Positions 38,004-43,831 of a DNA stretch of 64,000 bases are shown one piece after another. The DNA comes from Escherichia phage vB_Eco_Jura. The translations under genes were made by a program, and so were the position numbers. The notes beneath the pieces were generated by a model. The model saw nothing but the letters and a program-made list of their open reading frames with translations, was not told where the DNA came from and searched no databases. Positions within the stretch are counted from its first letter, which is position 1, and each line of letters starts with the position of its first letter. The stretch is from the sequence record LR999871; one strand, written 5' to 3'.

Positions 38004-38022
38004 GTTGCTTCGCAACTTATGG
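38004..38022 (+). promoter_or_regulatory. Hairpin promoter P-a, N4 vRNAP type (GTTGC-TTC-GCAAC, then ttatGG)
   Basis: 5-bp stem, 3-nt loop; GG at +11/+12 from loop centre, same spacing as the other two; template-strand loop GAA. Confidence 0.55.
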
Positions 38023-38470: not shown

Positions 38471-38491
38471 AAGAAGCTCCGCTTCTTTTGG
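38471..38491 (+). promoter_or_regulatory. Hairpin promoter P-b, N4 vRNAP type (AAGAAGC-TCC-GCTTCTT, then ttGG)
   Basis: 7-bp stem, 3-nt loop; minus-strand reading CATCCAAAAGAAGCGGAGCTTCTT matches my recollection of N4 early promoter P2. Confidence 0.65.
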
Positions 38492-40433: not shown

Positions 40434-40436
40434 ATA

Positions 40437-40470
40437 GGAGGGGGCTACTAAGCCCTCTTCTTATTTTTAT
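40437..40470 (+). terminator. Rho-independent terminator
   Basis: GGGGGCT-acta-AGCCCTC hairpin followed by T-rich run. Confidence 0.55.
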
Positions 40471-40506: not shown

Positions 40507-40722
40507 ATGGAACAGTTAAACTACGGTTATAAGATTAAACGCAATCAAGTAAGAGGTTCTTGGTTATTTCTCGTTTATGGTAAACCAATCTATGAATTAC
40601 ATCGTGGAGAGAAATCCAAGACCTATTACGTAACTCATATTGCTACAGGAAAAACTCCTGCATGTGCAGGATTGCTTCGTGATGCAATTATGAAAGCATG
40701 TATGTTAGAAGGACTTCTATGA
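40507..40722 (+). CDS. Hypothetical protein, 71 aa
   Basis: ORF with GGAAGGAA RBS. Confidence 0.5.
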   Translation: MEQLNYGYKIKRNQVRGSWLFLVYGKPIYELHRGEKSKTYYVTHIATGKTPACAGLLRDAIMKACMLEGLL

Positions 40723-41033
40723 ACCAAATCATTGCTATCCCGCAGCATAAAGCTCGTATTGCTGACAGGAATATTCGTATTCATTATCCAATGCCTTTGA
40801 GTAATCCATTTCAGAAAAATGAGAGAACCACGGATGAAGATATAGCAGCAGCTTATGAGGCATATCTTCGTAACCGTTTGGTAAGTGGTGACAAGCTCAT
40901 TACGGCTGAAATGGAACGAATTGCTAAATTCGTTATAGATGATACTGACAAACCCGTTGGCCTCATTGGTAATGAACTGGAAGTGAATGTAATCCGTAAG
41001 ATTATTATGGAGGCTCTTAATGGGAATCAGTGA
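40719..41033 (+). CDS. Hypothetical protein, 104 aa
   Basis: Start MNQIIAIP overlapping previous stop (ATGA). Confidence 0.5.
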   Translation: MNQIIAIPQHKARIADRNIRIHYPMPLSNPFQKNERTTDEDIAAAYEAYLRNRLVSGDKLITAEMERIAKFVIDDTDKPVGLIGNELEVNVIRKIIMEALNGNQ

Positions 41034-41196
41034 ATCCCAGGCTATGGCTATTAAACAGTTAGCCTTCAACTGCCTTAGTGCTATGAAGGCATTTAATGAA
41101 GCAAAAACTTTCCCTGACCAGAATAAAGCTCGTATTCGACTTTATCAGTCTAAGAAAGATTTTGAAGAATATCTGGAAAGTATTACGGTGAAATAA
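41023..41196 (+). CDS. Small hypothetical ORF (57 aa)
   Basis: Bridges two genes with overlapping start and stop; below track cutoff. Confidence 0.35.
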   Translation, partial: GISESQAMAIKQLAFNCLSAMKAFNEAKTFPDQNKARIRLYQSKKDFEEYLESITVK

Positions 41197-41516
41197 TGAA
41201 AACAATATTAATTGTTCATGATGCTGATTTTAATGATGTTGATAAAATGATGCGTAATATTGATTATGTAGCTCAGACAACTCCAGCATTTAAAGAAGAA
41301 TTTACTCTATATTGTGATGCTAATTCACCATTAGTTCCCATTCTGAAAGAAGCTGGTTTACCCTTCTCTACAGATAATTTCCCTGAAGAACCTGATTATG
41401 TAATTTCATTTATTTATGACTTACATGATGGCTCAGAACCAAGTGAATTGACTATGAGTCAATGGAAATCCAGAAGACCTGTATATGCATTTCAGGTAGT
41501 TAAATCAAGGAGTTAA
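41196..41516 (+). CDS. Hypothetical protein, 106 aa
   Basis: ORF in tightly packed array. Confidence 0.55.
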   Translation: MKTILIVHDADFNDVDKMMRNIDYVAQTTPAFKEEFTLYCDANSPLVPILKEAGLPFSTDNFPEEPDYVISFIYDLHDGSEPSELTMSQWKSRRPVYAFQVVKSRS

Positions 41517-41518
41517 CT

Positions 41519-41887
41519 ATGTTAGGTGATAACACTAATGCTCTGTTTGGAGTGTCAGCCAGACCTATTATCATTGTTAATAAACATCATGGTAAAAAGG
41601 GTGAATATATTGGGCGTGGTTCTCCTCTGGGTAATCCATTCGTTATTGGTAAAGATGGAACCAGAGAAGAAGTAATTGCCAAATATAAAGTATGGCTACA
41701 AGAACAGATTGATAAAGGTAATCCAGTTGTACTGGATGAATTAAATCGTCTTGGTAATAAAGCCATTGATGAAAAAGGATTAGCTTTACAGTGCTTCTGT
41801 TATCCAAAACCTTGTCATGGCGAGGTTATTAAAGAGAAGTTAGTAAAAGCTATGTATAACTACTTTGTGGAAAATCCTAATGGATAA
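41519..41887 (+). CDS. DUF4326-like protein (GNPF ... CxCxPxPCHG motifs), 122 aa
   Basis: RGSPLGNPF and QCFCYPKPCHGEV match my recollection of the DUF4326 signature. Confidence 0.6.
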   Translation: MLGDNTNALFGVSARPIIIVNKHHGKKGEYIGRGSPLGNPFVIGKDGTREEVIAKYKVWLQEQIDKGNPVVLDELNRLGNKAIDEKGLALQCFCYPKPCHGEVIKEKLVKAMYNYFVENPNG

Positions 41888-42065
41888 ACAATGCAAATGT
41901 GGTAAAGGCTATGTATCCCAATGGGATGGTAAATGTGGTCATTGTAGAACCAAGAAAGAACAACGTGACCATGAATATGCACTTCAGGAAATGATTGTAC
42001 CTGTTGAGAATTTAGGTATGGCTCCACTTGAGGCTTACAAATACATAAGGAGATTATGCAAATGA
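41880..42065 (+). CDS. Small Cys4 zinc-ribbon protein, 61 aa
   Basis: CKCG...CGHC pattern; start overlaps previous stop. Confidence 0.45.
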   Translation: MDKQCKCGKGYVSQWDGKCGHCRTKKEQRDHEYALQEMIVPVENLGMAPLEAYKYIRRLCK

Positions 42066-42442
42066 AAGAAGTATTCGTATTTGGTTCTAACCTTGCTGGT
42101 GTACATGGTGCAGGTGCTGCAAAGACAGCATATAAGAAACATGGAGCCAGATGGGGTAAAGGGCATGGTCATTATGGTGACAGCTACGCTATTCCCACTA
42201 AAGATACCAATATCAAAACGATGACTATTGAAGACATTCGTACATTTGTAAACGCCTTCATTGTCTATGCTGCTAATCATCCAGAACTTAACTTTAAAGT
42301 TACTCGTGTAGGTTGTGGATTAGCTGGTATTGATGATTCTGTTATGGCCTCTATGTTTGAAAATGCCACTGATAACTGTTCCTTTGACTTAGCATGGAAA
42401 AGTTACTTAGGGGATGATTTCAACTACTGGGGAACGTTCTAA
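42062..42442 (+). CDS. Hypothetical Gly-rich nucleotide-binding-like protein, 126 aa
   Basis: VFVFGSNLAGVHGAGAAKTA and VTRVGCGLAGIDDSV; start MKEV with AAGGAG RBS; fold not assigned. Confidence 0.55.
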   Translation: MKEVFVFGSNLAGVHGAGAAKTAYKKHGARWGKGHGHYGDSYAIPTKDTNIKTMTIEDIRTFVNAFIVYAANHPELNFKVTRVGCGLAGIDDSVMASMFENATDNCSFDLAWKSYLGDDFNYWGTF

Positions 42443-42460
42443 CTCATACGTTAGGCAATA

Positions 42461-42480
42461 AGCTGCTCCGCAGCTTTTGG
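42461..42480 (+). promoter_or_regulatory. Hairpin promoter P-c, N4 vRNAP type (AGCTGC-TCC-GCAGCT, then tttGG)
   Basis: 6-bp stem, 3-nt loop TCC identical to P-b; same spacing to GG; 37 nt upstream of RNAP II gene. Confidence 0.6.
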
Positions 42481-42516: not shown

Positions 42517-43329
42517 ATGTCTACTATCGAACATCAGATGCACCTCGAAAAGCTGTACAACAAGAACCAACTGTTACCAAGAATGCGTCAGGAGTTTGAA
42601 GAAAACTCTGGTATTGATTTCAAAGCCTTCTTTGCACATATAGGCATTGATTACAAATTTGGCATTGATGCAATGGTTCAAATGGCTCTGCATAAGCGAG
42701 CTGACCTACCAACATTAGTTGGTACATTGCGTCATCATTGCAAATCTGCACAGGAAGTAGCAGACAACCTTTTTAAGATGGCAAGTGAGGATTGCTTTAA
42801 CTTTGACCCGACCATCGACAAGTTCATTGTCATTTATACAATCAGCGATGACGTACAGCATGAACTGGATTCATTTCAATATCCACTACCTATGGTAGTA
42901 CGTCCTAAGCTGTTAACTAAGAATTATGGTACTGGGTACTTCACATGTAATAAGAGTGTGATTCTTAAGAAGAACCATACTGACGATGACATCTGCTTAG
43001 ACCATCTGAACCGTATGAACAAGATTCCATTGTCTATCAATTGGGATGTAGCTCATATGGTTAAAAATGAATGGGCTAATCTGGATAAACCGAAAGAAGG
43101 TGAAACTCGTCAGGAGTTTGAAAAACGTGTACGTGCATTCCAGAAATATGACCGTACTGCACATGAAGTAATGGGTTTATTGACCCAGGAAGGCAATAAG
43201 TTCTATCTGACTCATCGTCCGGATAAACGTGGTCGTACCTATTGCCAAGGTTATCATGTAACATACCAGGGAACTTCTTGGTGTAAAGCCGTGATTGAAC
43301 TTGCTGATAAGGAACTTATCAATGATTAA
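42517..43329 (+). CDS. Phage RNA polymerase II, small subunit (T7-like RNAP N-terminal homolog), 270 aa
   Basis: HRPDKRGRTY resembles T7 RNAP DxRGRxY; paired with downstream catalytic subunit as in N4. Confidence 0.75.
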   Translation: MSTIEHQMHLEKLYNKNQLLPRMRQEFEENSGIDFKAFFAHIGIDYKFGIDAMVQMALHKRADLPTLVGTLRHHCKSAQEVADNLFKMASEDCFNFDPTIDKFIVIYTISDDVQHELDSFQYPLPMVVRPKLLTKNYGTGYFTCNKSVILKKNHTDDDICLDHLNRMNKIPLSINWDVAHMVKNEWANLDKPKEGETRQEFEKRVRAFQKYDRTAHEVMGLLTQEGNKFYLTHRPDKRGRTYCQGYHVTYQGTSWCKAVIELADKELIND

Positions 43330-43831
43330 AGACAGAATGCCTATGGGTTACTGGAACAAACCAATAGAAGAATTAGCAATAGCTCACCCAAAAGAAGCTG
43401 CTAATAGTGCTAGTGGTTACATACGTATATCCAGAAACAATAGGATTCATTATTTACATCGTTGGTTGTGGGAACAAAAACATGGTGCTATCCCTGCTGG
43501 ACACACCATTGACCATCTTAATGGAATCCGGACTGATTGCCGTTGGGAAAACATGCGTTGTATCCCTTGGGCAATTAACTTACGTAATAGTACAAAGCGT
43601 GCTGATAACACGTCAGGAGTAACAGGTGTCTCACTATGGAAATCTCCAAAAGGAGTGTTCTGGAGAGCAACTTGTACTGACAACTTAACAGGAAAACAAC
43701 GATGTAAGGTGTTTTCCATAAATAAATACGGTTACAACTTTGCATTTGAATTAGCATGTGATGCTCGTGCCGATATGATTGAACGCCTGAACCAACAAGG
43801 TGCAGGTTATACCGACCGTCACGGTCAATAA
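43322..43831 (+). CDS. HNH homing endonuclease with AP2-type DNA-binding domain
   Basis: HTIDHLNGIRTDCRWENMR HNH motif plus GVTGVSLWKSPKGVFWRA...YGYNFAFELACDARA; start overlaps upstream stop. Confidence 0.8.
   Translation: MIKDRMPMGYWNKPIEELAIAHPKEAANSASGYIRISRNNRIHYLHRWLWEQKHGAIPAGHTIDHLNGIRTDCRWENMRCIPWAINLRNSTKRADNTSGVTGVSLWKSPKGVFWRATCTDNLTGKQRCKVFSINKYGYNFAFELACDARADMIERLNQQGAGYTDRHGQ

Follow-up and report, generated by a model that had tools for sequence, protein, structure and literature searches.

A candidate ADP-ribose-processing gene cluster in the early region of an N4-like Escherichia phage

The window analysed here is a 64,000-nucleotide stretch of the Escherichia phage vB_Eco_Jura (sequence record LR999871), and within it we examined three small genes encoding a DUF4326 protein, a predicted zinc ribbon and a predicted compact macrodomain (Table 1). 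The window is closely related to coliphage N4: over the 1.5 kb surrounding the three genes, sequence identity is 99.3% with Escherichia phages vB_Eco_SPSP and vB_Eco_AL25 and 98.3% with N4. The N4 record names the three open reading frames (ORFs) gp12, gp13 and gp14, and these names are used below for their homologues; RNAP1 and RNAP2, which encode the subunits of N4 RNA polymerase II (RNAPII), come next. A preliminary description of the sequence had listed three overlapping small genes, the last encoding a 126-residue protein with a VGCGLAGIDDS motif, and all three were recovered in place on the plus strand; the gp14 sequence also includes GSNLAGVHGAGAAK. The overlaps, 8 nt between gp12 and gp13 and 4–10 nt between gp13 and gp14, suggest translational coupling. 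These are genuine genes rather than chance ORFs, since 831 database protein clusters are related to gp12 and at least 7998 match the gp14 family, and N4-type phages annotate the same ORFs.

Table 1. Features of the early region of vB_Eco_Jura, with the three-gene cluster first (window coordinates)
Feature	Position	Strand	Description
gp12 homologue	41519-41887	+	DUF4326 protein, 122 aa; GNPF and CFCYPKPCHG present
gp13 homologue	41880-42065	+	Predicted zinc ribbon, 61 aa from ATG; C5xC7...C19xxC22, CKCGKGYVSQWDGKCGHCRTKKEQ; phrog_13804
gp14 homologue	42056-42442	+	Predicted compact macrodomain, 128 aa, or 126 aa from ATG 42062 (N4-record start)
gp8 homologue	40507-40722	+	Pfam PF25713 'Bacteriophage N4 DNA replication inhibitor', E 1.1e-18
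gp9 homologue	40698-41033	+	Degenerate DUF4326 paralogue without the Cys/His motif; N4-record start is internal ATG 40719
gp11	41196-41516	+	106 aa, phrog_7827
Intergenic early-region hairpin	38004-38016		5-bp stem, 3-nt loop
Intergenic early-region hairpin	38471-38487		7-bp stem, 3-nt loop
Intergenic early-region hairpin, gp14-RNAP1 spacer	42460-42476		AAGCTGC-TCC-GCAGCTT; 7-bp stem, 3-nt loop, template-strand loop GGA
Terminator-like hairpin	40436-40461	+	After gp7, upstream of gp8; 11-bp stem, then T run
HNH and AP2 homing-endonuclease gene	43295-43831	+	Between RNAP1 and RNAP2, overlapping the RNAP1 end; Pfam HNH_3 E 8e-17, AP2 E 5.6e-7

The high-confidence structural model of gp14 displays a three-layer α/β/α macro fold, by which gp14 is predicted to be a macrodomain; a nucleotide- or ADP-ribose-binding fold had been proposed for it from its motifs, and that proposal held up. 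Among solved structures the DarG antitoxin macrodomain comes closest, and the match list comprises Mycobacterium tuberculosis (Mtb) DarG (score 9.8), alphavirus nsP (4gua, 9.7), the Chikungunya macrodomain (9.2), yeast Poa1p (8.8), human TARG1 (8.2) and Thermosipho DarTG (8.2). The fold is not apparent from routine sequence comparison: a Pfam scan of gp14 yielded nothing significant and no Macro (PF01661) match at E ≤ 0.1, T4 Tk.4 by contrast matching Macro at E 2.9e-6, and direct PDB sequence searches with gp12 and gp14 returned nothing significant. The protein is assigned to NCBIfam NF049995, 'A1S_2505 family phage non-structural protein' (E 1.4e-45), and to phrog_2072, of unknown function. 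Members occur in 401 phage records, which take in most N4-like phages as well as Bordetella phage BPP-1, crAss-like phages and some jumbo phages. Several GenBank records label the gp14 homologue 'macrodomain protein', 'ADP-ribosylglycohydrolase' or 'Macro domain Poa1p family', so that its macrodomain identity is already in public records. An 'ADP-ribosyltransferase' seemingly beside gp14 homologues in Rhodobacter phages was discarded, the label being the gp14 homologue's own annotation. Separately, the crAss-like phage cr116_1 (NC_055882.1, L094:6046-13569) encodes a 2507-aa polyvalent protein in which residues 248-376 form an ART-PolyVal domain and residues near 985-1106 a gp14-like macrodomain; PTK is still present in this macrodomain, but the second glycine loop is degenerate and reads N-T-N-T-A-S.

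The key motifs of gp14 are N12, the G18-A-G20-A-A loop, P47-T48-K49 and the G86-C-G-L-A-G91 loop. Across 38 family members N12, P47 and T48 are invariant, the glycine loops H17-G-A-G20-A-A and G86-C-G88-L-A-G91 are invariant or nearly so, and K49 is kept in at least 90%. Glycine-rich loops of macrodomains hold the diphosphate and the distal ribose of ADP-ribose, and both gp14 loops align with their counterparts in DarG, TARG1 and the phage macrodomain AdfM; N12 aligns to N23 of the PhiKZ AdfM. When the family profile was compared with PDB sequences, the best match was TARG1 (hmmsearch E 0.54, sub-significant; hhalign E 1.8e-5), with P-T-K49 placed on TARG1 I-T-K84 and G-C-G-L-A90 on G-C-G-L-D125. 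The gp14 IPTK49 segment likewise aligns to the FPTK of the Mtb, T. aquaticus and T. africanus DarG structures, and the catalytic lysine of lysine-type macrodomains is K84 in TARG1 and K80 in T. aquaticus DarG. Taken together, a stripped-down lysine-type macrodomain is predicted, possessing the two glycine loops as well as the key Asn and Lys residues, with Ala at the Asp125 position; judged by alignment, gp14 has the residues that an active lysine-type ADP-ribosylhydrolase would be expected to carry. Among the TARG1/OARD1 and Poa1p class, TARG1 shares the lysine and the aligned GCGL motif; it differs in having Asp125 and in having Ser in place of the first-loop Asn of gp14.

The AdfM proteins are stand-alone phage macrodomains that protect against DarTG2 (PhiKZ gp104, PMC13309987; T4 Tk.4, bioRxiv 10.1101/2025.11.20.689424). 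PhiKZ gp104 removes ADP-ribose from thymidines of single-stranded DNA, and mutation of N23 lowers this removal (PMC13309987); for T4 Tk.4, DarTG2 protection was shown genetically and the mechanism was inferred (bioRxiv 10.1101/2025.11.20.689424). The predicted gp14 macrodomain is, like these, stand-alone and without a partner toxin, and it matches PhiKZ AdfM in the first-loop Asn, in both glycine loops (the first of them G-x-G) and in the PTKD motif, which is identical. The two are distant (hhalign E 3.2e-4, 98 columns): gp14 is shorter (126-128 aa versus 155-162 aa), belongs to a separate sequence family outside the reach of Pfam Macro and, unlike AdfM, has been kept next to the RNAPII genes throughout an entire phage family. 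T4 Tk.4 has Gln where gp14 has Lys, its sequence similarity to gp14 is non-significant, and we rejected it as a sequence homologue; the likeness is at the level of fold only, with a Tk.4 relative at E 6.5e-3 in BFVD. The DarG macrodomain (PDB 5m3i, 5m31, 7omu) has FPTK and both glycine loops in register with gp14, at a non-significant profile-to-sequence score (E 0.12). gp14 differs in lacking the C-terminal DarT-binding domain of DarG and the ~20-residue DarG segment that precedes the PTK strand, and it is flanked by gp13 and RNAP1, with no adjacent DarT gene. PADLOC returned no model match for gp11–gp14. The same logic, in which a phage holds the 'eraser' half of a DarTG system, applies to phage NADAR proteins (AdfN; T4 30.3), which are anti-DarTG1 factors (PMC11825919); the AdfN fold is unrelated to that of gp14, and its substrate is ADP-ribosyl-guanine, the product of DarT1. 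We found no NADAR gene in the vB_Eco_Jura region examined.

Upstream of gp14, gp12 is a full-length DUF4326 protein (PF14216; E 9.4e-23, 81.1 bits where the cut-off is 25, with positions 4-82 of the 82-position model matched), as its GNPF and CFCYPKPCHG elements had led the preliminary description to propose. Seven diverse phage DUF4326 proteins have in common R33, N39-P40, R49, Y56 and C92-x-C94-x-P96-x-x-C99-H100 (gp12 numbering). A moderate-confidence model of gp12 was built on a shallow alignment, a search with a diverse DUF4326 profile having gathered almost only E. coli N4-like sequences; its best match was the RapZ C-terminal domain, followed more weakly by cysteine phosphatases (PTP/DUSP). 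In the model, the Cys/His loop lies between a core strand and the next helix, the place of the cysteine-phosphatase active site. The C-X5-R signature of protein phosphatases is absent from gp12, in which the C-x-C-x-P-x-x-C-H loop reads C-F-C-Y-P-K-P-C-H-G and has no Arg five residues after any Cys. Placement of gp12 and DUF4326 in the rhodanese-phosphatase superfamily, alongside two proposed relatives, the RapZ C-terminal domain and DUF488, is plausible on this model, and related DUF4326 proteins give weak DUF488 matches. Burroughs and Aravind are said to have named a 'RapZ-C-DUF488-DUF4326 clade' in 2023. To our knowledge, no biochemical activity has been described for any DUF4326 protein.

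The structural matches of gp12 agree with published predictions. One prediction places DUF4326 among the rhodanese-phosphatases, as a clade whose substrates would be ribose-linked phosphates on ADP-ribose products (PMC9503650), and the computational work of the Aravind group proposes terminal ribose phosphates of such products as its target (PMC9503650, PMC7824862); elsewhere DUF4326 is fused to Macro, SLOG or NADAR domains (PMC7824862, PMC9503650). We found DUF4326 in 893 phage records, including a DUF4326-NADAR fusion in Bacillus phage AgentSmith, and published work also reports it from giant viruses. In T4-like phages the DUF4326 gene is named nrdA.1, which gives rise to misleading 'NrdA-like' labels. 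A second copy is present in the early region: gp9 aligns to the first 61 columns of DUF4326 (hhalign probability 92%, E 5.2e-7) at a Pfam score of 21.7 bits, under the cut-off of 25. The gp9 orthologues of three loci (L030, L036, L076) retain CFCAPKxCHG, and the cysteines have been lost in the N4 clade and in Achromobacter phages. With gp12 intact and gp9 devoid of these cysteines, N4 therefore has one intact and one degenerate DUF4326.

Between gp12 and gp14 lies gp13, a predicted zinc ribbon. The preliminary description had rightly singled out a 61-aa four-cysteine ribbon, which proved to be conserved, and had misread the cysteine spacing, the two pairs being arranged as C-x-C-x11-C-x-x-C and not as CxxC...CxxC. 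A scan of 1.84 billion representative proteins yielded 83 gp13 relatives, most of them stand-alone proteins of 50-75 aa, with a common N-terminal signature, C-x-C-G-x-G-Y-x-S-x-x-D-x-K-C-x-x-C-R-T; a 17-residue regular expression that includes the C-x-C-x11-C-x-x-C spacing was present in 81 of the 83. The ten longest ribbon-containing representatives were scanned against Pfam, and in the longer proteins the ribbon is fused N-terminally to its partner domains. Four of the ten join DUF4326 to the ribbon (P0282, P0285, P0315, P0339), one DUF4326 and SLOG (P0338), and three SLOG at sub-threshold Pfam scores (P0330, P0341, P0343); P0288 gave no Pfam match and is SLOG-like by eye only. A further arrangement is found in the N4-like Pseudomonas phage CRC2 (OR687458.2, L009:530-1824), whose record is unannotated: a 321-aa protein carries a NADAR domain (Pfam E 1.7e-29), then the ribbon (gp13 aligning to residues 150-205, BLASTP E 7e-10) and a SLOG-like (YAcAr) third part with a sub-threshold Pfam match, and a DUF4326 gene comes next, overlapping the end of the fusion gene. 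No fusion of a gp14-like macrodomain to the ribbon was present among the 83 representatives. The fusions with DUF4326, SLOG and NADAR-SLOG indicate that the gp13 ribbon is a recurrent appendage of domains related to ADP-ribose or NAD; in N4 it is a separate gene wedged between two genes for such domains. We found no earlier description of this link between the ribbon and DUF4326, SLOG or NADAR, which is added here together with the degenerate gp9 paralogue.

Gene order was surveyed in 80 IMG/VR loci encoding a gp14 relative, which were scanned with local profiles and divided into 57 N4-like loci, recognized by an RNAPII small-subunit gene (RNAP1), and 23 others. gp14 lies on the same strand as RNAP1 and less than 1.5 kb upstream of it in 51 of the 57. 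At least one DUF4326, SLOG or NADAR gene is present in the flanks of 44 of the 57 N4-like loci versus 3 of the 23 others, SLOG genes accounting for neighbours in 31 of the 57, and in some N4-like phages NADAR genes replace or accompany the gp12–gp14 genes. A ribbon gene was detected in 12 loci, all from enterobacterial N4 relatives; in all 12, gp13 stands immediately upstream of gp14 with the overlap kept, even where gp12 is absent or separated. From these data the stable unit is gp13-gp14-RNAPII, with gp12 as a looser member. The co-occurrence is observed mostly in one phage family, so inherited gene order and functional linkage are inseparable on these data, and the domain fusions are the stronger argument for a functional link. 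In four N4-like IMG/VR contigs from close relatives (L015-L018), we observed further gene content: in L015-L017 the homologues of gp9 and gp11 flank a SLOG gene, and L015, L016 and L018 have an extra gene of ~118-146 aa immediately upstream of gp13, which in L016 and L018, where gp12 exists, sits between gp12 and gp13. These insertions mark this part of the early region as a hotspot of gene gain and loss.

From the folds, motifs, fusions and synteny, we infer candidate substrates, a partnership of the three proteins and a defence target. Our leading, if tentative, reading, which we hold as a serious possibility somewhat short of probable, is that the cluster is an early-expressed gene set for the removal and processing of ADP-ribose, in which gp14 would be an orphan antitoxin-like hydrolase with DarT2-modified DNA as its leading candidate substrate. 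gp14 would bind ADP-ribose in the cleft between its two glycine loops and, as a member of the TARG1/DarG/Poa1p-like class, might hydrolyse the bond that joins the distal ribose to a macromolecule. The closest experimentally characterised analogues are anti-DarT factors, hence the leading hypothesis that gp14 strips ADP-ribose from phage DNA; the best candidate substrate would be the ADP-ribosyl-thymidine that DarT2-type toxins generate on single-stranded phage DNA. gp14 could then serve, like the PhiKZ and T4 AdfM proteins, as an orphan antitoxin produced within the first few minutes of infection, ahead of replication. gp13 is envisaged as a zinc-ribbon adaptor, one that other phages have covalently joined to DUF4326, SLOG and NADAR-SLOG enzymes, and gp12 as a putative DUF4326 enzyme that would most likely target a phosphate or a ribose, either in ADP-ribose itself or at an ADP-ribosylated end of a nucleic acid. 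An anti-defence role for the cluster, also raised in the preliminary description, is what we infer from this comparison. Functionally, the cluster is best filed among phage-encoded ADP-ribose erasers and processors, a kind of function that is already known.

Several observations weigh against this assignment. The position of TARG1 Asp125 is occupied by the invariant Ala90 in the gp14 family (DarG and PhiKZ AdfM, too, lack Asp there and have Asn or Gly), and the sequence likeness of gp14 to the comparison proteins is weak (hhalign E 0.12 for Mtb DarG, 0.06 for T4 Tk.4). In gp12, residues C92, C94, C99 and H100 could equally form a structural zinc site. gp12 is not always beside gp13-gp14 and is absent from several close relatives, and the co-occurrence of SLOG, DUF4326 and NADAR genes is largely confined to N4-like phages and could reflect inherited gene order. 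Our literature search found no experiment on N4 gp12, gp13 or gp14; the earlier statement that none of the three has an assigned function thus stands at the experimental level, and does not stand for annotation, as GenBank labels and published computational predictions exist. With gp14 near-universal among N4-like phages and fixed beside RNAPII, a core function is a better fit than an accessory counter-defence aimed at a toxin of sporadic occurrence. This last point leaves room for two other readings, in which the substrates are small ADP-ribose derivatives or ADP-ribosylated proteins.

In the first of these, the proteins act not on modified DNA but on small diffusible ADP-ribose derivatives such as immune second messengers or breakdown products of NAD+, gp14 cleaving or binding the derivative and gp12 removing a terminal ribose phosphate. 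Iyer et al. favour small ADP-ribose derivatives for phage Macro domains, the published proposal for DUF4326 concerns ribose-linked terminal phosphates (PMC9503650), and the frequent SLOG neighbours in N4-like loci are ligand sensors or phosphoribohydrolases; the anti-Avs protein ORF83, moreover, is SLOG/LOG-like, and its viral homologues have a C-terminal DUF4326. However, the lysine found in TARG1 and DarG, both deconjugators of macromolecular adducts, is retained in gp14, a basic-rich zinc-ribbon adaptor would be easier to explain with a macromolecular target, and we know of no sponge-like or signal-degrading activity in the macrodomain clade of gp14. We consider the small-molecule substrate rather unlikely.

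Reversal of protein ADP-ribosylation by gp14, the mark being that of a host or phage transferase within the transcription programme, would explain the fixed place of gp14 beside the RNAPII genes, and the synteny with RNAP1 in 51 of 57 loci speaks for it. TARG1 removes ADP-ribose from protein glutamate. ADP-ribosyltransferase domains are fused to some N4-like virion RNA polymerases (PMC5512222), and the polyvalent protein of cr116_1 unites a gp14-like domain with ART-PolyVal. Yet Pfam found no transferase domain in the 3506-aa virion RNA polymerase of vB_Eco_Jura, the annotation of AlfredRasser, a closely related genome, lists no transferase, and in the crAss copy the second glycine loop is degenerate; we judge a protein substrate improbable. 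Equally hard to credit is the view that gp12, gp13 and gp14 are independent early genes kept adjacent by inherited order, with gp13 a generic small zinc-binding protein: the gp12 homologue of Achromobacter phage Axy04, a DUF4326 gene, lies ~2.7 kb upstream of its gp14 homologue, several close relatives have no gp12 or have another gene between gp12 and gp13, and some of the stand-alone gp13 relatives occur in T7/SP6-like phages, but eight of the ten longest ribbon proteins have DUF4326 and/or SLOG, the CRC2 fusion gene is followed at once by a DUF4326 gene, and the gp13-gp14 overlap is kept in every ribbon locus.

A bolder extension of the reading in which gp14 removes ADP-ribose from DNA draws on N4 biology. 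N4-like transcription depends on single-stranded DNA, since the virion RNA polymerase uses hairpin promoters and gp2 recruits RNAPII to single-stranded templates, which would make removal of ADP-ribose from DNA especially valuable. gp14 might then be no optional counter-defence but a family-wide guardian that clears ADP-ribose from single-stranded templates, with a zinc-ribbon-guided DUF4326 partner in a two-step clean-up of ADP-ribose from nucleic acid. We regard this as highly speculative and very unlikely; were it true, it would explain the position of gp14 beside the RNAPII genes and provide the first biochemical role for DUF4326. N4 is a classic model phage with most of its early genes lacking a known role, and several members of its family are used therapeutically. 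Should gp14 prove to be an ADP-ribosylhydrolase, nearly every N4-like phage would possess an eraser of ADP-ribose marks, and the 'orphan antitoxin' form of counter-defence shown for T4 and PhiKZ would extend to a whole phage family. The link of gp13 to DUF4326, SLOG and NADAR offers a concrete handle on the widespread DUF4326 proteins and a route to their first activity.

The cluster is bounded by hairpins. In each of the three intergenic early-region hairpins, the complement of the loop on the template strand is GAA or GGA; the hairpin following gp14 matches the form of the second, and no further 7-bp-stem hairpins with a TCC loop were found in the window. We take the three to be the N4 virion RNA polymerase early promoters, the third, designated promoter P-c in the preliminary description, presumably marking the downstream edge of the cluster. 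Hairpin promoters of this kind are read in N4 by the injected virion RNA polymerase, and on this assumption the gp12–gp14 cluster falls in the early region. Upstream, the putative terminator that follows gp7 is likely the edge of a gp8–gp14 transcription unit, which gp8, as the first gene past this hairpin, appears to head. gp11 was found together with gp9, gp13 and gp14 in 12 loci. Its reading as a degenerate SLOG domain was prompted by a by-eye likeness of ILIVHDADFNDVD to VAIVGGRDFTN and was set aside as unsupported, the BLASTP comparison and profile-profile comparisons with two SLOG alignments being non-significant (E 16, 0.25 and 0.5). Downstream of the cluster, the homing-endonuclease gene lies at a point where the N4 spacer measures only 47 nt, and the insert was found in none of 43 matching phage records. 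Its flanks are ~89.6% identical, versus 98-99% nearby, a pattern that fits a recent homing event with co-conversion.

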